A DNA stretch of 64,000 bases from Anaerolineae bacterium (GTDB lineage Bacteria > Chloroflexota > Anaerolineae > Aggregatilineales > UBA3940). The notes below the pieces were generated by a model that was not told where the DNA came from, did no database searches, and saw nothing but the letters and a program-made list of their open reading frames with translations. Below, piece after piece: positions 2,945 to 41,973 of this stretch. Numbering within the stretch: the stretch's first letter is position 1; each line of letters opens with the position of its first letter. The position numbers were made by a program, and so were the translations under genes. The DNA is taken from contig JAFGOY010000010.1 of NCBI GenBank assembly GCA_016926255.1, positions 119,007-183,006 on the forward strand, in the 5' to 3' direction.

Positions 2945-2973
2945 AAAAAAAGCGCGGAGCATGTGCTCCGCGC
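2945..2973 (-). terminator. Intrinsic terminator (attenuator) in the tyrS leader
   Basis: Minus strand GCGCGGAGC-ACAT-GCTCCGCGC (perfect 9-bp stem) followed by 7 T, about 40 nt upstream of the tyrS ATG. Confidence 0.9.
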
Positions 2974-3003
2974 CGGGTTATCGATCTGCAAGGCAGGGGC
3001 CGA

Positions 3004-3078
3004 TTATCTCCCTGAGACGCGAGCCATGCTCACTCGTATGGCTTTGGAATAATAGTATAGATTGCTATTCCTGAGCAT
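3004..3078 (-). CDS. Putative tyrS attenuator leader peptide MLRNSNLYYYSKAIRVSMARVSGR
   Basis: Translated by hand: ATG at 3078, TAC-TAT-TAT at codons 8-10, TAA at 3006-3004. Purine-rich AGAAGGCAGG just upstream. Lies between a promoter and the terminator. Confidence 0.8.
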   Translation of the reverse strand: MLRNSNLYYYSKAIRVSMARVSGR

Positions 3079-3109
3079 GTCGGCCTGCCTTCTGTTCGAT
3101 CTTGCGCAT

Positions 3110-3138
3110 AGAGTAGCACGGCGGCAGTGAACCGTCAA
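3110..3138 (-). promoter_or_regulatory. Sigma70-type promoter for the tyrS leader
   Basis: TTGACG (3138-3133), 17-nt spacer, TG-n-TACTCT (3115-3110), immediately after the PBP stop codon. Confidence 0.75.
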
Positions 3139-15810: not shown

Positions 15811-15832
15811 GATGTTCGACACAGATGGCTTC

Positions 15833-15925
15833 AACTCCCTCCGCCGGTATTACCCGGATCAGGTTCAGGGGTCGATGCAGGATTATGCACCCTCTCAGCT
15901 TGCTTCACGCAGGCTCCCCCGTGAT
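15833..15925 (-). ncRNA. TPP riboswitch aptamer
   Basis: Minus strand GGGGAGCC...GCTGAGA...CCC-TGAACCTGATCCGGGTAATACCGGCGGAGGGAG matches the THI-box consensus. Upstream of thiamine genes. Confidence 0.95.
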
Positions 15926-16046
15926 GGGATATCATTTTGTCAATGTGAACAGACTATAGCGCGCCGATTTGTTTCCTGCCAGTATTGCCCCTGTGATCGT
16001 TCTGCGCCGGTTTCGGCCCGCCTCCAAACCGACTATAATTCAATCC

Positions 16047-29698: not shown

Positions 29699-32968
<3,270 letters not shown>

Positions 32969-32988: not shown

Positions 32989-33016
32989 TTGACAGCATCC
33001 GACAGGACGTTATACT
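32989..33016 (+). promoter_or_regulatory. Sigma70 promoter of the his operon
   Basis: TTGACA (32989-32994), 16-nt spacer, TATACT (33011-33016). Confidence 0.8.
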
Positions 33017-33025
33017 TAGGGCACT

Positions 33026-33100
33026 ATGAGTAAAATGACTGTTCACGCTCACCATCAGCACCATCATCATAAGACCAGCATCGAAGAGACCCGGTGGTGA
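33026..33100 (+). CDS. hisL: his operon attenuator leader peptide MSKMTVHAHHQHHHHKTSIEETRW
   Basis: 7 His codons within 9 codons, TGA at 33098-33100. Sits between the promoter and terminator upstream of hisG. The start could be ATG 33035. Confidence 0.9.
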   Translation: MSKMTVHAHHQHHHHKTSIEETRW

Positions 33101-33165
33101 TTTTGCTGCGTGCGTTCGAACAATCATAAGGAAGCCAGCAGCTTCCAGTGTGAGCAGGCAAAACC

Positions 33166-33195
33166 AAAGCCCCCCGAGGTCCGGGGGGCTTTTTT
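33166..33195 (+). terminator. Attenuator terminator of the his operon
   Basis: AAAGCCCCCCG-AGGTC-CGGGGGGCTTT followed by TTT, about 27 nt before the hisG ATG. Confidence 0.92.
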
Positions 33196-33222
33196 AGTGG
33201 CCTGAAAAAAGGAAAACGTCAA

Positions 33223-34245
33223 ATGGACGAGTCACAGGTTCGCCTTTCCCTGCCCAGCAAGGGGCGGATGGAAGAAGAAACGAAGGCATTCCTCGATGAA
33301 TGCGGGATGCGGATCGAGATCACCAACCCGCGCCAGTACTTCGCCCGAATCCCGGCGCTGCCACAGGTTCAGGTGTTGTTCCAGCGGGCGCGTGATATCG
33401 CCCGATCGGTTGAGGCTGGTGACGTCGATCTGGCGATCACGGGCTTCGATATCATCGTCGATACGCTGGGCGAGGATCACCCGGAACTGGTGGTGATCCA
33501 CGAGGCGCTGGGATACAGCCATTGCAAGCTGGCGCTGGCCGTTCCCTATGAATGGGACGATGTGAGCGACATGAAATCGCTGGGCGAACGGGCGTCCCGC
33601 TCACCGGAAGGGCTGCGCGTGGCAACCAGGTACGTCAACGCGACTCGCGGCTACCTCGACCGGCACGGCCTGAGCCAGATTCGGATCGTCAGCGCGGATG
33701 GCGCGTTGGAAGCTGCCCCCTCGATTGGCTATGCAGAGCTGATCGCCGACATCACCTCGACCGGGACGACTCTGCGCGAAAACCTCCTCAAGCTGCTCGA
33801 TGGCGGCACGATAGTCGAGTCGCAGGCGGTGCTGGTTGGCAATCGAAAGGCGCTGGAATCGCGCCCGGCGGTGCGTGAAACGACGCGCCAACTGCTGGAA
33901 TTCATCGAGGCGCACCTGAGAGCCAGAGGCCAGTATCTCGTGTTCGCCAATATGCGCGGCGAGAGCAAAGACGAGATCGCCCGGCGGATTTTCGAGCAGC
34001 CCAACCTGGGCGGCTTGCAAGGCCCGACCATCTCGCAGGTGCTCACCCGTGACGGCGACAGCGGCTGGTGGGCGATCAATCTGGTGATTGCCCATGACAA
34101 ACTCTACGACTGCGTGCGGCAGGTGCGGGCCGCCGGGGGCAGCGGGGTGGTGATCACTCCGGTGGTTTACATCTTCGAGGAATACCCGGAGCGCTTCCGC
34201 AGGCTGCTGGACAATCTTGGACTACAGGAGGAGTTGGGAGAATGA
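33223..34245 (+). CDS. hisG: ATP phosphoribosyltransferase (long form)
   Basis: SLPSKGR, DLAITGFD, GALEAAPSIG..ELIADITSTGTTLREN, C-terminal regulatory domain (PTIS). Confidence 0.96.
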   Translation: MDESQVRLSLPSKGRMEEETKAFLDECGMRIEITNPRQYFARIPALPQVQVLFQRARDIARSVEAGDVDLAITGFDIIVDTLGEDHPELVVIHEALGYSHCKLALAVPYEWDDVSDMKSLGERASRSPEGLRVATRYVNATRGYLDRHGLSQIRIVSADGALEAAPSIGYAELIADITSTGTTLRENLLKLLDGGTIVESQAVLVGNRKALESRPAVRETTRQLLEFIEAHLRARGQYLVFANMRGESKDEIARRIFEQPNLGGLQGPTISQVLTRDGDSGWWAINLVIAHDKLYDCVRQVRAAGGSGVVITPVVYIFEEYPERFRRLLDNLGLQEELGE

Positions 34246-35582
34246 GCGGTGAACTGTTCGAAATCTATTCGCTGGACGAAGCACAGACGAGCATTTTGAA
34301 ACGCGTGCCGCCGGACGAGTTCGAGGTGACCGGAGGATTGTTGGATAGCATCGAGTCGATCTTCGGCGAGCGGCTGACCCCGGAGCAGGCGATCAAAACG
34401 GTGATCGGCGATGTGCGGGTGCGGGGTGACGCCGCCCTGCGGGAGTGGTCGGAGCGGATCGATAAGGTTACGCTCGATGAATTAGCCGCGACCCCGGAAG
34501 AATTCGAGGCGGCGGTCGAGGCGACCCCGCCCGAAGTTTACGAAGCGCTTGAACTCGCCGCCGAACGGATCGAGGCATTCCACCGCAAACAGCCGGTTAC
34601 CTCGTGGATCGACCCCGGCCCGGAAGGGACGCTCGGCCAGTTGATGCGCCCCATCGACCGGGTGGGCGTCTACGTGCCGGGTGGCACTGCCCCCCTGCCG
34701 TCGTCGATGCTGATGAGCGCAATCCCCGCCTGGGTCGCAGGAGTCGGCGAGGTGGTCGCCTGCACCCCACCGGCTAAAGATGGCAGCATCCCGGCGGCGA
34801 TTCTTGCGGCGGCGAAGATCGCCGGTGTGGAAAAGGTCTACCGGTTGGGCGGCGCACAGGCTATCGCAGCGATGGCCTACGGAACTGAATCGGTGCCGAA
34901 GGTCGATAAGATCGTGGGGCCGGGGAATTTATTCGTGATGCTCGCCAAGCGGCAGGTCTACGGCGCGGTGGGGATCGACGGGCTGCTTGGCCCGACGGAG
35001 ACAATGGTGATCGCCGATGAATCGGCCCACCCGGCGACCATCGCTGCCGATCTGCTGGCCCAGGCCGAACATGATGTGCTGGCTCAGGCATTACTCATCA
35101 CTCCCAGCCGCGAACTGGCAATGGCTGTCGAGGTCGAGATCAGGCGGCAGGTTGAACAGCGCAGCCGGGCCAATATTATCGCCGAGTCGCTGCCCCGTGC
35201 GGGTGGGGCGGTGATCGTCGCCGACCTGGACGAAGCCTTCGAGGTTGCCAACGCCTACGGCGCGGAACATCTCCAACTCTCGGTGAAAGACCCCTTTGCC
35301 TGTCTGGGGAAGGTCAAACATGCCGGGGCAGTTTTTCTGGGTGAATCGTCCTTCGAAGTGCTGGGCGATTACGTCGCCGGGCCAAGCCACAGCCTGCCGA
35401 CCAGTGGATCGGCACGCTACGCGTCGGGGATCAATGTGCTGGATTTCGTCAAGGTCACCAGCGTGATCGGGTTGGAAGCGGGCGCAGCCGCCGAGTTGAG
35501 CAGGTCGGCGGCGATCATCGCCCACGCGGAAGAACTCGACGGGCACGCGGCGGCGGCGGAAGCACGGATCAAATCGGAATAG
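34242..35582 (+). CDS. hisD: Histidinol dehydrogenase
   Basis: VGVYVPGG, GGAQAIAA, VGPGN, DLLAQAEHD, AEHL, GDYVAGPSHSLPT. Confidence 0.98.
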   Translation: MSGELFEIYSLDEAQTSILKRVPPDEFEVTGGLLDSIESIFGERLTPEQAIKTVIGDVRVRGDAALREWSERIDKVTLDELAATPEEFEAAVEATPPEVYEALELAAERIEAFHRKQPVTSWIDPGPEGTLGQLMRPIDRVGVYVPGGTAPLPSSMLMSAIPAWVAGVGEVVACTPPAKDGSIPAAILAAAKIAGVEKVYRLGGAQAIAAMAYGTESVPKVDKIVGPGNLFVMLAKRQVYGAVGIDGLLGPTETMVIADESAHPATIAADLLAQAEHDVLAQALLITPSRELAMAVEVEIRRQVEQRSRANIIAESLPRAGGAVIVADLDEAFEVANAYGAEHLQLSVKDPFACLGKVKHAGAVFLGESSFEVLGDYVAGPSHSLPTSGSARYASGINVLDFVKVTSVIGLEAGAAAELSRSAAIIAHAEELDGHAAAAEARIKSE

Positions 35583-35586
35583 GCCA

Positions 35587-36705
35587 ATGAAACCAACGAT
35601 AGAAGACGCGCTCAACCTGATCCGGCCCGACATCGCCGGGATGGAACCGTACACGCCAATCGTGCCCTTCGAGGTGCTGAGCGAGCAATTAGGGCGCAGG
35701 CCGGAAGACCTCGTCAAGCTGGATGCGAACGAAAATCCCTACGGGCCATCACCGAAAGCGCTGGCGGCGATGGGTAAGCTCGATGCGACTGCCCACATCT
35801 ATCCCGACCCGGAAGCACGGAAGCTGCGGGAAGCACTGGCGGATTACGTCGGGGTAGGGGCGGAATACATCATGGCCGGGGCCGGGGCCGATGAGATCAT
35901 CGACCTGCTGATGCGGCTGTTCATCCAGCCCGGCGACGGGGTGATCAACTGCCCGCCCTCGTTCGGGATGTACCCCTTTGATGCCGCGCTCCACGCCGCA
36001 AACCTGATCGAAGTACCGCGCCGGGCCGATTTCTCGCTCGATGTGGAAGGGATCGAGTGGGCGGCGGCGCAGGAGAACGTCAAACTGCTGCTCGTCTGCT
36101 CGCCGAACAACCCCGACGGCGGGCTGATCGCCCCCGACGACCTGGATCGGCTGCTCCGGCTGCCGCTGATCGTCGTCGTGGACGAAGCCTATATCGAGTT
36201 CGGCGGGGTGGGGAGCGCCTCGCGGCGCGTCTCGGAGACGCCCAACCTGATCGTGCTTCGAACGTTCAGCAAGTGGGCAGGGCTGGCCGGGCTGCGGGTC
36301 GGCTACGGCGTCTTTCCCCTGCACTTCATGGAACACCTGTGGAAGATCAAACAGCCGTACAACGTCAACGTCGCCGCCGATGCTGCTGCGCGGGCCTCGC
36401 TCGATGACGTCGAAACCCTGATGGCAACCGTCGAATTGTTAAAAGCCGAACGCGAACGGCTAGCAGCCGAACTCGCCGCGATCCCTTACCTTGCGCCCTA
36501 TCCAAGCCGGAGCAACTTTATCCTGTGCCGGGTGGATGGTATCGAGGCGGGCGAACTCAAACATCGGTTGGCCGAAGACTACGGCATCTTGGTCCGCTAC
36601 TATCGGAAAGCGCGGCTGTTTGATCATGTGCGGTTCAGCGTGGGCAAACCCGAACAAACCGACCGGCTGATCGAGGCGCTGCAAGCGATTGGAGAGTCAT
36701 TATGA
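35587..36705 (+). CDS. hisC: Histidinol-phosphate aminotransferase
   Basis: [37 protein letters not shown]. Confidence 0.97.
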
Positions 36706-37298
36706 GCATGCGACAGGCAAAGATCACACGGAATACGAACGAAACACAGATCGAACTGACGCTGAACGTTGACGGCAGCGGCAAAGCATCGATTGATACG
36801 GGGGTCGGCTTTTTCGACCATATGTTGCATCACATCGCCGTACATGGCCTGTTCGATCTCGACGTAAAAGCCAGCGGCGACCTGGAGATCGACGCACATC
36901 ATACAGTTGAGGACATTGCAATTGTCTTCGGGCAGGCGCTCGACAAAGCGCTGGGTGATCGTAAGGGCATCGTGCGGATGGGTGAATCAACCGTACCGAT
37001 GGACGAAACACTCGCACGGGTCATTGTCGACCTGAGCGGCAGGCCCTATGCTGTGATACAGGGGACTTTCAACTTCGAGATGCTCGGCCAGATGCCGACG
37101 ACGCTCGTCCCCCACGTTCTGGAGACGATTGCCATTCATGGGAAGATGAACCTTCACGCCGAAGTCCTGTACGGGCGCGACGATCATCACAAGGCCGAGG
37201 CGCTGTTCAAGGCGCTGGGCCGGGCACTCGATCAGGCCACGCGGCTCGATCCGCGTCGCGGAGGCGTGCCCAGCACAAAAGGTACGTTAACTGCCTAG
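36702..37298 (+). CDS. hisB: Imidazoleglycerol-phosphate dehydratase
   Basis: [30 protein letters not shown]. Confidence 0.98.
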
Positions 37299-37303
37299 CA
37301 TTG

Positions 37304-37445
37304 CGGGGCGCTGCCCCGCACCCCGGAAGGGAAATAATTTCCCTTCACCCTATCACCTATTTATCGGGCACAGCCCGATAAATAGATATGAGTTTTGATC
37401 AAACTTTTTCAAAAGTTTGTGGGGTTCCAGGGGCAGGACCCCTGG
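37304..37445. repeat. ~140-bp multi-hairpin intergenic element, copy 2
   Basis: Inverted-orientation homologue of 13788-13930, located between hisB and hisH. Confidence 0.85.
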
Positions 37446-37504
37446 AAATGACAAAGCACAATAAAAGAAGCACCTATATATGCCAACGGGGGGGACACCT
37501 GTAC

Positions 37505-38134
37505 ATGATTGCGATTATCGATTACGGCGCGGGGAATCTGAGAAGCGTCGCCAACGCCTTCCGCTATCTGGGCGCGAACAGCAAGACGGTCAGCACGCCG
37601 GGTGAACTGAAAGACGCCGAGAAGATCGTGCTACCGGGCGTGGGGGCGTTCGGCGCGGGGATGGCGAACCTGCGCAAGTCGGGATTCGAGGAGCCGATCA
37701 AAGAGGCGGCGAAGGCGGGTATCCCGCTGCTGGGCATCTGCCTGGGCCTGCAATATCTCTTCGAGTGGAGCGACGAAATGGGCCGCCATGAAGGGCTGGG
37801 CCTGCTGCCCGGTTACATCACGCGCTTCCCGGAGGGCGATCCCCGGCTGGCCGGGATGAAAATCCCCCATATGGGCTGGAACGAGCTTCACATCAAGCGC
37901 GATCACCCGTTGATGAAGGACGTGAAGCCGGGAAGTTTCGCATATTTCGTCCATTCATATTATGCTGTCCCTGCCGACACCGGCGATATCGTCGCCACGA
38001 CCGATTATGGCTTCGATTTTGCGTCGGTTGTTGCACGTGGCAATGTGATGGGAATCCAGCCGCACCCGGAAAAAAGCCAGTTAGTTGGCCTGCGTATCCT
38101 GCGCAACTTTGTGGAAATGGAGCGTGATTTATGA
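37505..38134 (+). CDS. hisH: IGP synthase glutaminase subunit
   Basis: IIDYGAGNL, LPGVG, GICLGLQ, IPHMGWN, QPHPEKS. Start moved to ATG 37505 because the ORF-track extension runs through the repeat. Confidence 0.96.
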   Translation: MIAIIDYGAGNLRSVANAFRYLGANSKTVSTPGELKDAEKIVLPGVGAFGAGMANLRKSGFEEPIKEAAKAGIPLLGICLGLQYLFEWSDEMGRHEGLGLLPGYITRFPEGDPRLAGMKIPHMGWNELHIKRDHPLMKDVKPGSFAYFVHSYYAVPADTGDIVATTDYGFDFASVVARGNVMGIQPHPEKSQLVGLRILRNFVEMERDL

Positions 38135-38853
38135 TTGTTTACCCGGCAATAGACCTGCGCGGCGGCAAAGTCGTCCGTTTGCAGCAGGGGGACCCCACAC
38201 GAGAAACTGTTTACGGCGATGATCCGGTGGCCGTGGCCGAACGCTGGAAGGAAGCCGGGGCAAAGTGGCTGCACGTCATCAACCTGGATGGGACGCTTGG
38301 CGAGGCGGTTCACAACCTCGAAACGCTGGCTAATCTCAGCAAAGTTGGCCTGCCGATCCAGTTTGGCGGTGGTCTGCGTACGCTGGACGATGCACAAAAG
38401 GCGCTCGACGCGGGTGCGGCGCGGATCATCCTGGGGACGCTGGTCGTTCATACCCCCCGGCTGGCCTGGGTTGCGGTAGAACGGTTCGGACAGGATGCGG
38501 TCGCAGTAGCGCTCGACGCACGTGACGGGCGGGTCTGGACGCACGGCTGGACGGAGATCAGCAGCTGGATGCCCATCGAACTGGGGCAGCGTTTCGCCGA
38601 TATGGGCGTGAAGTATGCGCTGTATACCGACATCACCCGCGACGGCGAACTGACCGGCATTAACGTCGAGGCAACCTCGGAACTGGCCGGTGAAACCGGT
38701 ATGCACGTGATCGCCGCCGGGGGTGTGGCCGTCCTCAACGACATTCGCGCGGTGAAGGCCGCCAGGAACGAAATCGAGGGCGTGGTGATCGGTAAGGCGC
38801 TTTACACCGGGTCGATGGACCTGGCCGAAGCATTGAAAGTCGCCACTGAATAG
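38131..38853 (+). CDS. hisA: ProFAR isomerase
   Basis: [36 protein letters not shown]. Confidence 0.97.
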
Positions 38854-38876
38854 GAATAACTGGAGAAGGACGCTTT

Positions 38877-39653
38877 ATGCTGGCTAAACGAATCATTCCC
38901 TGCCTCGATATCCACGATGGACGGGTGGTCAAGGGAGTCAACTTCGTCAACCTGATCGACGCCGGGGACCCGGTCGAACATGCGCGGGTATACGATCAGG
39001 AAGGTGCGGACGAACTGACCCTGCTGGATATTACTGCAACACACGAGGAACGCGACACCATGCTCGACGTGGTGCGCCGCGTGGCCGATGCGATCTTCAT
39101 CCCCTTCTGCGTGGGTGGCGGCCTGCGCACCATCGACGATATCCGCGAGACGCTGCTGGCCGGGGCCGACAAGACCTCGATCAACAGTTCGGCGGTGCGG
39201 ACGCCGGAATTGATCGGCGACGGGGCGGAGCGCTTCGGCAGCCAGTGCATGGTGGTCGCCATTGACGCCAAGTGGAACGGCGAGTTCTACGAGGTCTATG
39301 TTTCCGGCGGGCGCATCCCGACCGGGAAAGACGCCGTCAAGTGGGCGAAAGAAGCCGAAGATCGGGGCGCGGGCGAAATCCTGCTGACAAGCATGGACGG
39401 CGACGGCACCCAGGCCGGGTACGAACTCAGGCTGACTCGTGCCGTGGCCGATGCGGTCAATATCCCGGTGATCGCGTCAGGCGGCGCGGGAACGATGGAG
39501 CATTTCTACGAAGCATTGACCGCAGGTAATGCCGATGCCGCGTTAGCGGCCAGCCTGTTCCACTTCCGGGAGATGACCATCAGCGATTTGAGACACTATT
39601 TACGGGAACGAGGCGTGATCGTTCGATCACCGGAGGAGGCAGACCTTGATTGA
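38877..39653 (+). CDS. hisF: IGP synthase cyclase subunit
   Basis: [41 protein letters not shown]. Confidence 0.98.
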
Positions 39654-39978
39654 AATCGAACAGGTGCGCTGGGATGACCGGGGATTGTGCCCGGCAATCG
39701 TTCAAGACGAGGCCAGCGGGCAGGTATTGATGATGGCCTATATGAACGCCGAATCACTGCGTATGACGCTCGAAATGGGCGAGACGGTGTTCTGGAGCCG
39801 CAGCCGCCAGGAACTCTGGCACAAGGGTGCGACGAGCGGCAATACCCAGAAAGTAACCGGTATCTGGATCGACTGTGACGAAGACACGATTCTGGTGAAG
39901 GTCAACCCCGCCGGGCCTGCCTGTCATACCAACGAATTCAGCTGCTTCTTCCGGACGATCAAAGCGCCGAAGAAATAA
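39646..39978 (+). CDS. hisI: Phosphoribosyl-AMP cyclohydrolase
   Basis: [36 protein letters not shown]...SCF. Confidence 0.97.
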
Positions 39979-40177
39979 AATCGTAACGGACATTTCGTGA
40001 CCATTTCCGGACGGCGGCGATGTAACGAAATGGGGAATTACGGGACACATAATCGTTACGTTTTCCGCCCGGCTCATCCCTTTCGTTACAACGGGTCGTC
40101 GATCAGAAGAATCTGACAACTGATTTATAGGAAAAGGGCGACCGGGTGGTTGTCCTTCCGTGAATGTTGGAGGGCCG

Positions 40178-40462
40178 ATGGCCGACATGATTGAAAAGGT
40201 TTTTGCGATCATCGAAGATCGCAAAGCGAATCCAAAAGAGGGGTCGTATACCAATCACCTTTTTGACTCCGGGGAAGACGAGATCGTCAAAAAGGTGGGC
40301 GAAGAAGCCATCGAGGTGATCGTCGCGGCGAAGGGGCAAGGAGACGAACGGCTGATCAGCGAAGTGGCCGATCTGACCTATCACTGCCTGGTGCTGCTCG
40401 CTTCTCGCGGGCTTTCCCCCGCCGACATTTCCCAGGAACTCGAAAGGAGATACAACCAGTGA
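40178..40462 (+). CDS. hisE: Phosphoribosyl-ATP diphosphatase
   Basis: SYTNHL, KKVGEEAIE, EVADLTYHCLVLL. SD GGAGG before ATG 40178. Confidence 0.95.
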   Translation: MADMIEKVFAIIEDRKANPKEGSYTNHLFDSGEDEIVKKVGEEAIEVIVAAKGQGDERLISEVADLTYHCLVLLASRGLSPADISQELERRYNQ

Positions 40463-41973
40463 CCACACGCAGGGCATTATTAAGCGTTTATGACAAGACG
40501 GGTTTGATCGAGTTTGCACGGGGATTATCCGGGGCAGGCGTCGAACTGGTATCGAGCGGCGGCACCGGGAAGGCGCTGCGCGAGGCAGGTCTTGAAGTGG
40601 CAACGGTTGAGGATCTGACCGGGCTGCCGAGCGTGCTGGGCGGGCGCGTCAAGACGCTGCACCCGGCGATTCACGGGGGAATCCTGGCGCAGGATACTGC
40701 CGAAGACGCGGCAACGCTCGAAGAATCAGGCTGGGGCTGGATCGACCTGGTGGTGGTGAACCTCTACCCCTTCGTCGAGACGATCTCGAAAGCCGGAGTG
40801 ACCGAGGTCGAGGCCATCGAGCAGATCGACATCGGCGGAGTGGCGCTGATCCGGGCAGCGGCCAAGAATTTTAAGCGGGTGACGGTGATCACGACCCCGG
40901 AGGATTATGCGGCGGTGCTGGCAGAGATCGAGGCAGAGGGAGACACGTTATTAGAAACACGGCGCAGGCTGGCCAAAAAGGCATTCGCGGTGACGGCGGC
41001 CTACGATACAGCCATCGCCGGGTACTTTGCGGGCGAGTCTGGCGAAGTGCTGCCCGCTGCGCTATCGATCACGATGCCACAGGAAATGATATTACGCTAT
41101 GGCGAGAATCCCCACCAGCAGGCGGCCCTCTACACCCCGGCCGGCGTCGGGCCACTGGGGGCCGATCAATTGCAGGGAAAGCCGCTTTCCTACAACAACC
41201 TGCTCGACATCGACGCGGCATGGACAGCCATGAGCGATTTCGAGGACCCGGCTATCGTGATCGTGAAGCACCTCAGCCCGTGCGGGATCGCGGTCGGCGA
41301 GAACCTGCCGGAAACGTTCGATGCGGCACTGGCTTCCGACCCGGTATCGGCCTACGGGAGCGTGATCGCCTGCAACCGGACTTTCGATAAGCCGACGGCG
41401 ACAGCACTTGGCAAGCTGTTCGTCGAAGCCATCGCCGCGCCGGAATTCACCGAGGAGGCGCTCGAAATGCTGGCAAGCCGCAAGAACTGCCGCCTGCTCA
41501 AAATGAAGCCGCTCGAAGACCCGGCGGTGATGATGCGCTCGGTGCGGGCCGGGATGCTGATCCAGACGATGGATCGATCAGAGGATGCGGAATGGCGGAT
41601 CGTAACCGAGAAGCAGCCTACCGATCAGGAGATGGCGGCGCTGCGCTTCGCGTGGAAAGTGGTCAAGCACGTCAAGAGCAACGCGATTGTGATTGCGAAT
41701 GAAACAGCCACGCTCGGCATCGGCGGGGGGCAGCCCAGCCGGGTCGACGCGGTGAAGATCGCCGTCGAGAAGGCGGGAGATCGCGTCAAGGGGGCGGTGC
41801 TGGCTTCGGATGCCTTCTTCCCATTCCCTGACGGGCCGGAAGTGGCAGCCCAGGCCGGGGTGAGCGCCATCGTTCAGCCGGGCGGATCGATCCGGGATGA
41901 CGTGGTGATCGAGGCGGCCAATAAGCTGGGAATTTCGATGGTGTTTACCGGCGTGAGACATTTCAGGCATTAG
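40459..41973 (+). CDS. purH: Bifunctional AICAR transformylase / IMP cyclohydrolase
   Basis: ALLSVYDK, GRVKTLHP, IDIGG, LRYGENPHQ, LSYNN, KSNAI, ASDAFFPF, QPGGS. GTG start overlaps the hisE stop (GTGA). Confidence 0.98.
   Translation: MTTRRALLSVYDKTGLIEFARGLSGAGVELVSSGGTGKALREAGLEVATVEDLTGLPSVLGGRVKTLHPAIHGGILAQDTAEDAATLEESGWGWIDLVVVNLYPFVETISKAGVTEVEAIEQIDIGGVALIRAAAKNFKRVTVITTPEDYAAVLAEIEAEGDTLLETRRRLAKKAFAVTAAYDTAIAGYFAGESGEVLPAALSITMPQEMILRYGENPHQQAALYTPAGVGPLGADQLQGKPLSYNNLLDIDAAWTAMSDFEDPAIVIVKHLSPCGIAVGENLPETFDAALASDPVSAYGSVIACNRTFDKPTATALGKLFVEAIAAPEFTEEALEMLASRKNCRLLKMKPLEDPAVMMRSVRAGMLIQTMDRSEDAEWRIVTEKQPTDQEMAALRFAWKVVKHVKSNAIVIANETATLGIGGGQPSRVDAVKIAVEKAGDRVKGAVLASDAFFPFPDGPEVAAQAGVSAIVQPGGSIRDDVVIEAANKLGISMVFTGVRHFRH

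Follow-up and report, generated by a model that had tools for sequence, protein, structure and literature searches.

Is transcription of the histidine biosynthesis operon of an uncultured Anaerolineae bacterium matched to the histidine supply by a translated leader? The question arises from a window of 64,000 nt (the whole stretch of DNA that was analyzed), which lies on contig C19 of a 4.6-Mb, 96% complete assembly. A preliminary description of the window proposed that hisG is preceded by a His-rich leader-peptide attenuator, consisting of a promoter, a short leader ORF, an intrinsic terminator and a candidate antiterminator. Our analysis supports this proposal: every hallmark of a ribosome-mediated His attenuator that can be computed is present. 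We consider it highly probable that the element is a ribosome-mediated leader-peptide transcription attenuator that makes hisGDCBHAFI respond to charged tRNA-His. The features on which this reading is built are, in order along the window:

Positions 32989-33016, forward strand: sigma-70-type promoter, with TTGACA at 32989-32994, a 16-nt spacer and TATACT at 33011-33016.
Positions 33026-33100, forward strand: putative leader ORF MSKMTVHAHHQHHHHKTSIEETRW, 24 codons plus TGA, recognized from its translation and from homologous His-run ORFs in 60/60 related leaders.
Positions 33044-33070, forward strand: segment 1, the His-codon cluster and proposed stalling site, with 7 His in 9 codons (codons 7-15).
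Positions 33088-33113, forward strand: segment 2, GACCCGGUGGUGAUUUUGCUGCGUGCG, which complements the His codons, provides the 5' strand of the predicted antiterminator and contains the leader stop codon (33098-33100).
Positions 33130-33146, forward strand: small internal hairpin GGAAGCCAGCAGCUUCC, enclosed by the antiterminator and not conserved outside the genus.
Positions 33154-33181, forward strand: segment 3, the 3' strand of the predicted antiterminator (GCAGGCAAAACCA...CCGAGGUC), which overlaps the 5' arm and the loop of the terminator.
Positions 33166-33195, forward strand: intrinsic terminator (segments 3:4), AAAGCCCCCCG-AGGUC-CGGGGGGCUUU plus U tract, with a hairpin of -20.6 kcal/mol.
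Positions 33223-39978, forward strand: operon of hisG (long form), hisD, hisC, hisB (IGPD only), hisH, hisA, hisF and hisI (PRA-CH), identified with Pfam and NCBIfam.

The operon that had been proposed downstream of the leader is borne out as a complete his operon, in the order hisG-D-C-B-H-A-F-I, by the Pfam and NCBIfam matches; hisG itself (33223-34245) encodes a long-form HisG with the HisG_C domain. A 210-nt gap inside the his cluster, between hisI and hisE (39979-40188), holds four CGTAAC/GTTACG-like words (TCGTAACGG, GATGTAACGA, ATCGTTACG and TCGTTACAACGG) and may be an operator or internal promoter region. hisE (PRA-PH) is separate from hisI; its stop codon and the GTG start codon of purH share the sequence GTGA (40459-40462; region 40160-41973), an overlap that ties an AICAR-recycling enzyme to the his cluster. 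The genome also encodes a second, distant HisG homologue of about 300 residues with 32% identity (contig C33, 31420-32265). Elsewhere in the window, a TPP riboswitch (RF00059) at 15819-15930 on the reverse strand scores 60.1 bits, above the gathering score.

The promoter and the terminator both lie where the preliminary description had placed them. The former is near-consensus, matching 11/12 consensus positions, and is the sole promoter-like site in the 1.2 kb between 32500 and 33700, where shuffled sequences give 0.3. The terminator stem (33166-33192) runs from G33169-C33189 to G33176-C33182 with A-U extensions and closes on a 5-nt loop; T6 (33190-33195) is directly 3' of the hairpin, and the whole structure follows the leader ORF and precedes hisG. 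The carB stop codon is at 32968, just upstream of the promoter, and no other terminator is found between this codon and the hairpin, a fact that invites a trivial reading: the hairpin would be the carB terminator, and the His-rich ORF a chance frame or a metal-binding micropeptide. This reading is hardly credible in the light of the related loci: the promoter, the ORF and the terminator travel together with hisG, whereas carB is found upstream of the module only within the same genus, other loci having different upstream genes. Since the upstream gene varies in this way, the module belongs to hisG rather than to carB. The pattern of conservation also speaks against the carB reading, in that the peptide outside the His run is unconserved whereas the RNA is conserved.

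How widely does the module travel with hisG? A HisG search in 40 relatives yielded 30 loci. The module, defined as the promoter, the ATG-initiated His-run ORF and the terminator, precedes hisG in 20/20 relatives whose HisG is at least 57% identical, and these loci belong to families f1, f2 and f8 of the order; in families f4-f7, which have more distant HisG proteins, the module is absent and no Rfam element was found either. R1, a covariance model derived from these 20 leaders, produces one strong match per genome (46-114 bits) in about 60 of the 301 genomes sampled from the order, exclusively in f1, f2 and f8. Within f1, every genome with an operon-type hisG and an assembled upstream region carries the module, and genomes that lack hisG lack the module too; the nine f1 genomes that give no R1 match either have no hisG or have it truncated by the end of a contig. 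A complete copy of operon-type hisG is missing from 9/24 f1 genomes. When the search was extended to an even sample of 401 genomes across the phylum, convincing R1 matches were confined to the class. Forty further leaders were combined with the 20 originals and aligned to R1, giving a 60-sequence alignment (A2) in which every leader has an ATG start and encodes a peptide of 16-34 residues with 3-7 His. Loss of the His-run ORF among relatives had been named in advance as an outcome that would count against the attenuator; the ORF is instead kept in 60/60 related leaders, from three families. The decisive evidence, which is comparative, is this conservation of the module in 60/60 related loci, and it argues that the leader is more than a chance arrangement.

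The leader ORF proposed at 33026-33100 is found there, with 7 His among codons 7-15, so that the operon is headed by a short frame with tandem codons for the amino acid that its enzymes make. Beyond the His run, the peptide is not conserved among the related leaders. The way in which this ORF is joined to its promoter is a feature that the preliminary description did not list. A TTGACA-17-TATACT promoter is found at the equivalent place in nearly all 60 relatives (the spacer is 16 nt here), and exactly 7 nt separate TATACT from the ATG in 47/60 loci, with intervening bases that vary. The leader ATG in the window has no Shine-Dalgarno sequence, and a 7-nt gap leaves no room for one at the 47 loci. 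Given this fixed spacing, a leaderless or nearly leaderless mRNA is the probable template for translation of the leader ORF. At the present locus 9 nt, not 7, lie between the -10 box and the ATG, making a short 5' UTR possible, probably of about 0-3 nt. Both the transcription start site and the translation of the leader ORF are predictions from the sequence. Predictions of leaderless genes exist for some genomes of Chloroflexi (PMC3160421). The rigid 7-nt spacing between the -10 box and the ATG offers a natural system for asking how leaderless initiation couples to attenuation.

If the leader is translated, the ribosome must have something to act upon. Constrained folding of the free leader RNA pairs the His codons to segment 2 (CCGGUGGUGAU; GGUGGUGAU) and forms the terminator; the minimum-energy fold of the leader pairs AUCAUCAU with GGUGGUGA, and the 181-nt leader folds with z = -3.76 relative to shuffles. 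Predicted stabilities of the 1:2 duplexes in 20 loci lie between -13 and -32 kcal/mol. In the 60-sequence alignment, 74.8% of cells are paired in the terminated structure and 13/19 pairs display compensatory changes, as do 8/9 pairs of the terminator stem, counts that shared ancestry may inflate. These folds predict a classical 1:2 protector, in which the His codons pair with segment 2 (GGUGGUGAU), in addition to the elements that had been listed earlier. Within segment 2, the motif CCGGYGGYG is nearly invariant across the alignments irrespective of the reading frame, being translated as TRW*, PGGG* or PAVVMV depending on the frame. Since the peptide itself is unconserved apart from the His run, this invariance in any frame argues that the constraint on segment 2 acts at the level of RNA, not protein. 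Where the His run is interrupted, in loci L004 and L012, segment 2 is altered to match.

The 1:2 pairing could still be incidental. In a two-state variant of the mechanism, the antiterminator is the default fold and is disrupted only by a translating ribosome, with no protector and no superattenuated state; three leaders of family f43 (L036, L037 and L039) behave in this way in silico, folding the antiterminator in the free truncated RNA and forming no 1:2 helix. For the leader studied here, however, this variant is unlikely: its free-RNA fold and those of most of the 20 relatives place the His run opposite GGUGGUGAU in a helix of -13 to -32 kcal/mol, segment 2 is a near-invariant complement of the CAY repeats, and its changes in L004 and L012 follow the interrupted His run.

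The attenuation model also calls for an antiterminator that uses the 5' arm of the terminator. It had been proposed to consist of two pairings, of GACCCGG (33088-33094) with CCGAGGTC (33174-33181) and of UGGUGAUUUUGCUGC (33095-33109) with GCAGGCAAAACCA (33154-33166), and exactly this structure emerges as the minimum-energy fold when the His-codon region is masked and the 3' arm of the terminator is omitted. A conventional consensus approach did not recover it: MAFFT alignment followed by RNAalifold on 20 leaders returned only the terminator and a trivial CCGG hairpin, and therefore constrained single-sequence folds, duplex tests and counts on the model-based alignment were used. To model the stalled state, the RNA was cut before the 3' arm of the terminator and the footprint of a ribosome stalled at the His run was masked. 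In this fold, 9/10 nt of the terminator 5' arm at the present locus are paired upstream; when the ribosome is instead placed at the stop codon, inside segment 2, the constrained fold leaves the 5' arm largely free again. Among the 20 folded loci, in which the 5' arm is usually 9-13 nt long, the mean number of its nucleotides that are paired upstream is 2.6 in the free RNA, 7.7 in the stalled state and 2.2 with the ribosome at the stop codon.

Cross-locus comparisons point in the same direction. Duplexes between segment 2 and the terminator are more stable for cognate than for non-cognate combinations, with means of -16.2 vs -14.0 kcal/mol, and 0/20000 permutations did as well; in a set of 45 non-redundant loci, the corresponding means are -15.5 and -14.7 kcal/mol (p = 0.002). 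Terminator loops are normally unconstrained. Here, across loci, they are complementary to the bases that immediately precede CCGG in segment 2: GAUCUGG pairs with CCGGAUC in L019, GUGGUCC with GGACCAC in L005, and GGUUGCCGGG with CCCGGUAACC in L016. In alignment A2, 70.5% of cells are paired in the antiterminator columns, as compared to 37-61% when the partner strand is slid, and the covariation score exceeds that of all 500 shuffles, a column-based test that shared ancestry may inflate. In a shuffled-spacer control, 5.4 nt of the C-rich 5' arm are paired on average, vs 7.7 nt in the native leaders, and most loci are individually non-significant; the case for the antiterminator is thus made by the cross-locus tests. 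Its cross-locus covariation is real, if modest. Taken together, a predicted antiterminator that uses the terminator 5' arm, and is mutually exclusive with the terminator, has moderate support, which is statistical across loci and not strong in any single locus.

The geometry of the leader is conserved as well. Between the last His codon and the start of segment 2 lie 17 nt at this locus and 16-29 nt in 60/60 loci, more than a stalled ribosome would span. Relative to the start of segment 2, the stop codon is placed between -7 and +35 nt in the 60 loci and is never far upstream of it, so that a ribosome finishing the leader peptide would always occlude segment 2. This arrangement, in which a stalled ribosome would leave segment 2 free and a terminating ribosome would cover it, holds in 60/60 copies.

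These elements suggest the following cycle. A strong, probably constitutive promoter would give rise to an RNA with its 5' end at or within about 3 nt of the leader AUG, on which ribosomes would load in spite of the missing Shine-Dalgarno sequence. When His-tRNA is plentiful, the ribosome would reach the UGA inside segment 2 and cover this segment; the terminator at 33166-33195 would then form, and transcription would stop before hisG. When His-tRNA is scarce, the ribosome would stall on the His cluster at 33044-33070, leaving segment 2 free to pair with segment 3 (the terminator 5' arm and loop) while the 3' arm has yet to be transcribed, and the 2:3 pairing would allow RNA polymerase to read into hisG. 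If the leader is not translated at all, the His codons would pair with segment 2 and the terminator would form, a state known as superattenuation. From the sequence elements and their conservation, the alternative pairings obtained in silico and the geometry, we infer the response to histidine; we regard the element as a real attenuator, and very probably a His-responsive one.

Is it the ribosome that reads this switch? In some Actinobacteria and Lactobacillales, his genes are controlled by His T-boxes (PMC9413887), and an element of that type, or an antiterminator protein, could in principle operate the hairpins while the small ORF stays untranslated. A search with the T-box model gave no match to the leader, either at the gathering score or at E values up to 10. 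In 60/60 loci, the frame of the His codons is set by an ATG whose distance from the promoter is fixed, and the position of the stop codon relative to segment 2 is constrained; sensing by tRNA or protein is therefore extremely unlikely.

A second question concerns the output. The alternative structures could mainly hide or expose the hisG ribosome-binding site (RBS), as the leaderless Cys short ORFs of mycobacteria do, and leaderless short-ORF attenuators that sequester the RBS do exist (bioRxiv 10.1101/834739). This form of translational control is very unlikely here. An equivalent terminator is found in 20/20 loci examined, each with a canonical G+C-rich hairpin followed immediately by a U tract and a predicted stability between -13 and -25 kcal/mol. 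The hairpin ends 26-91 nt before the hisG match in these loci (31 nt in the window), well upstream of the hisG RBS, and pairing with the RBS region is absent from the folds. Transcription attenuation by the translating ribosome thus remains the preferred reading.

Amino-acid-sensing leaders may not be restricted to hisG in this class. Weaker R1 matches in the class-wide even sample include differently built His leaders before hisG in three other families: L036, L037, L039 and L040 in f43, L041 in f56 and L046 in f17, exemplified by MKYALKHHHHHIQPPHGREVYVRVPVTK. Two f43 genomes with a His leader, G156 and G923, are single-contig assemblies and may represent cultured strains or isolates. Other matches precede genes of different pathways. 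L047 (genome G315) is a Thr-run leader, MKSVCFTMSMTTTTSRF..., before aspartate kinase, with its ATG 10 nt after a TAGAAT -10 box and TTGACT upstream; L044 (genome G326) is an Ile-run leader, ...FAFAIIIIGSV..., before citramalate synthase. Both have terminators and alternative folds. A leader of another family (L042, genome G105) is Arg-rich, MIVNSRNRRPNTRPPDRRSG..., and is followed by a terminator before an argG-like gene, recognized by eye from its argininosuccinate-synthase motif AYSGGLDTS.

The genome from which the window derives has further leaders of this kind, found with the covariance model. On contig C82, forward strand, positions 35757-36413 hold an ORF, MTASIANRNLIIIVVVLLLGLISQRS, with the Shine-Dalgarno sequence AAGGAG and a terminator after it. 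Next comes another ORF, rich in ILV (VLAQNTIVAISILIIVLLELIVLIKK...), which has a terminator of its own and precedes ilvD. The pair resembles tandem branched-chain amino-acid (BCAA) attenuators and is not leaderless. On the reverse strand of the same contig (82130-82269), an Arg-rich leader ORF, MTQLIAIVRRPRARTGST, and a terminator precede argC, identified by an NCBIfam match. Like its BCAA counterparts, this leader appears not to be leaderless. The Arg-rich leaders are candidate arginine-sensing attenuators, and our search of the literature found no precedent for such attenuators at arg biosynthesis genes. In a promoter-anchored scan of the same genome for a leaderless short ORF followed by a terminator, an obvious codon run was found only in the his leader. 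On the reverse strand of the window (2945-3138), a small ORF ending in ...MLRNSNLYYYSKAIRVSMARVSGR is followed by a terminator (the complement of 2945-2975), ahead of the next gene.

A wider reading of these observations is possible, if short of probable. The His leader would belong to a lineage-wide Anaerolineae set of leader ORFs that sense amino acids, represented here by His, Thr, Ile/BCAA and Arg, and the ORF of the His family would start strictly without a leader: 70S ribosomes would engage the 5'-terminal AUG immediately upon its emergence from RNA polymerase, and transcription-translation coupling would be built into the fixed 7-nt discriminator, independently of a Shine-Dalgarno sequence or of pause and release. 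The His family appears to be of independent origin from the proteobacterial his leader. The BCAA, Arg, Thr and Ile leaders point to ribosome stalling as a main way of sensing amino-acid supply in the class, which bears on the prediction of auxotrophy and cross-feeding in communities that contain Anaerolineae. These bacteria are abundant in sludge, sediment and digester communities. As to the His leader itself, it brings Chloroflexota, a large phylum that is mostly uncultured and in which gene regulation has hardly been studied, within the range of classical ribosome-mediated attenuation; both the leader ORF and the regulatory element are missed by current genome annotation.

How does this leader compare with those already described? 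Membership in the Rfam His_leader family (RF00514) was tested and rejected, the match scoring 22.0 bits (E = 0.19) against a gathering threshold of 49; that gathering score is reached neither in the window nor in 18 related loci. At E values up to 10, the leader gives only sub-threshold, terminator-driven Rfam matches (Phe_leader at 24 bits, His_leader at 22 bits). R1 and its 60 aligned members describe an RNA family absent from Rfam. No account of leader-peptide attenuation in Chloroflexota or Anaerolineae emerged from our literature search. A comparative survey places His attenuators in Gammaproteobacteria and three lineages of Firmicutes, with T-boxes or HisR elsewhere, and names Chloroflexi only in the title of a cited reference (Ashniev et al., 2022; PMC9413887). 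The Firmicutes His leaders resemble the present one in being non-proteobacterial, predicted by comparative genomics and missed by RF00514, but occur in unrelated lineages: the B. cereus group, Peptostreptococcaceae and Erysipelotrichales (PMC9413887).

Amino-acid-sensing short ORFs head operons in two further cases that differ from ours in both the phylum and the amino acid. One comprises the leader peptides of the trp, leu, ilvB and aroF operons of Corynebacterium glutamicum (PMC3890552). The other is the leaderless polycysteine short ORFs of mycobacteria, which are located at the very 5' end of the mRNA and recur with one shared design at many operons, a set that the authors named a 'ribulon' (Canestrari et al., bioRxiv 10.1101/834739). 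The mycobacterial elements act on translation through RBS sequestration, whereas the his leader described here ends in a canonical terminator and would act on transcription.

The closest relatives in logic are the two classical enteric systems. With the enterobacterial hisL attenuator, the Anaerolineae leader shares a short His-run ORF before hisG, His codons that pair with a downstream segment, an intrinsic terminator that competes with an antiterminator, and the opposition of stalling and run-through; even the gene order hisGDCBHAF-I and the long-form HisG are alike. The enteric his leader is divided into six segments, A-F, whereas the leader in Chloroflexota (class Anaerolineae) has a compact, trp-like layout of four segments (1:2, 2:3 and 3:4), in which segment 2 is predicted to pair directly with the 5' arm and loop of the terminator. 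The two also differ in their hosts, hisL being a gammaproteobacterial element, and in that the ORF studied here has no Shine-Dalgarno sequence and starts 7 nt (9 nt in the window) after the -10 box. The E. coli trpL leader is similar in its four segments, in its states (terminated, antiterminated by a stalled ribosome, and superattenuated when translation fails) and in the placement of the stop codon, which lets a terminating ribosome mask segment 2. It differs in sensing another amino acid, in belonging to another sequence family and in having a normal 5' UTR with a Shine-Dalgarno sequence. The his leader of Anaerolineae is thus a textbook attenuation mechanism housed in an uncatalogued sequence family, with a leader ORF that is probably leaderless.
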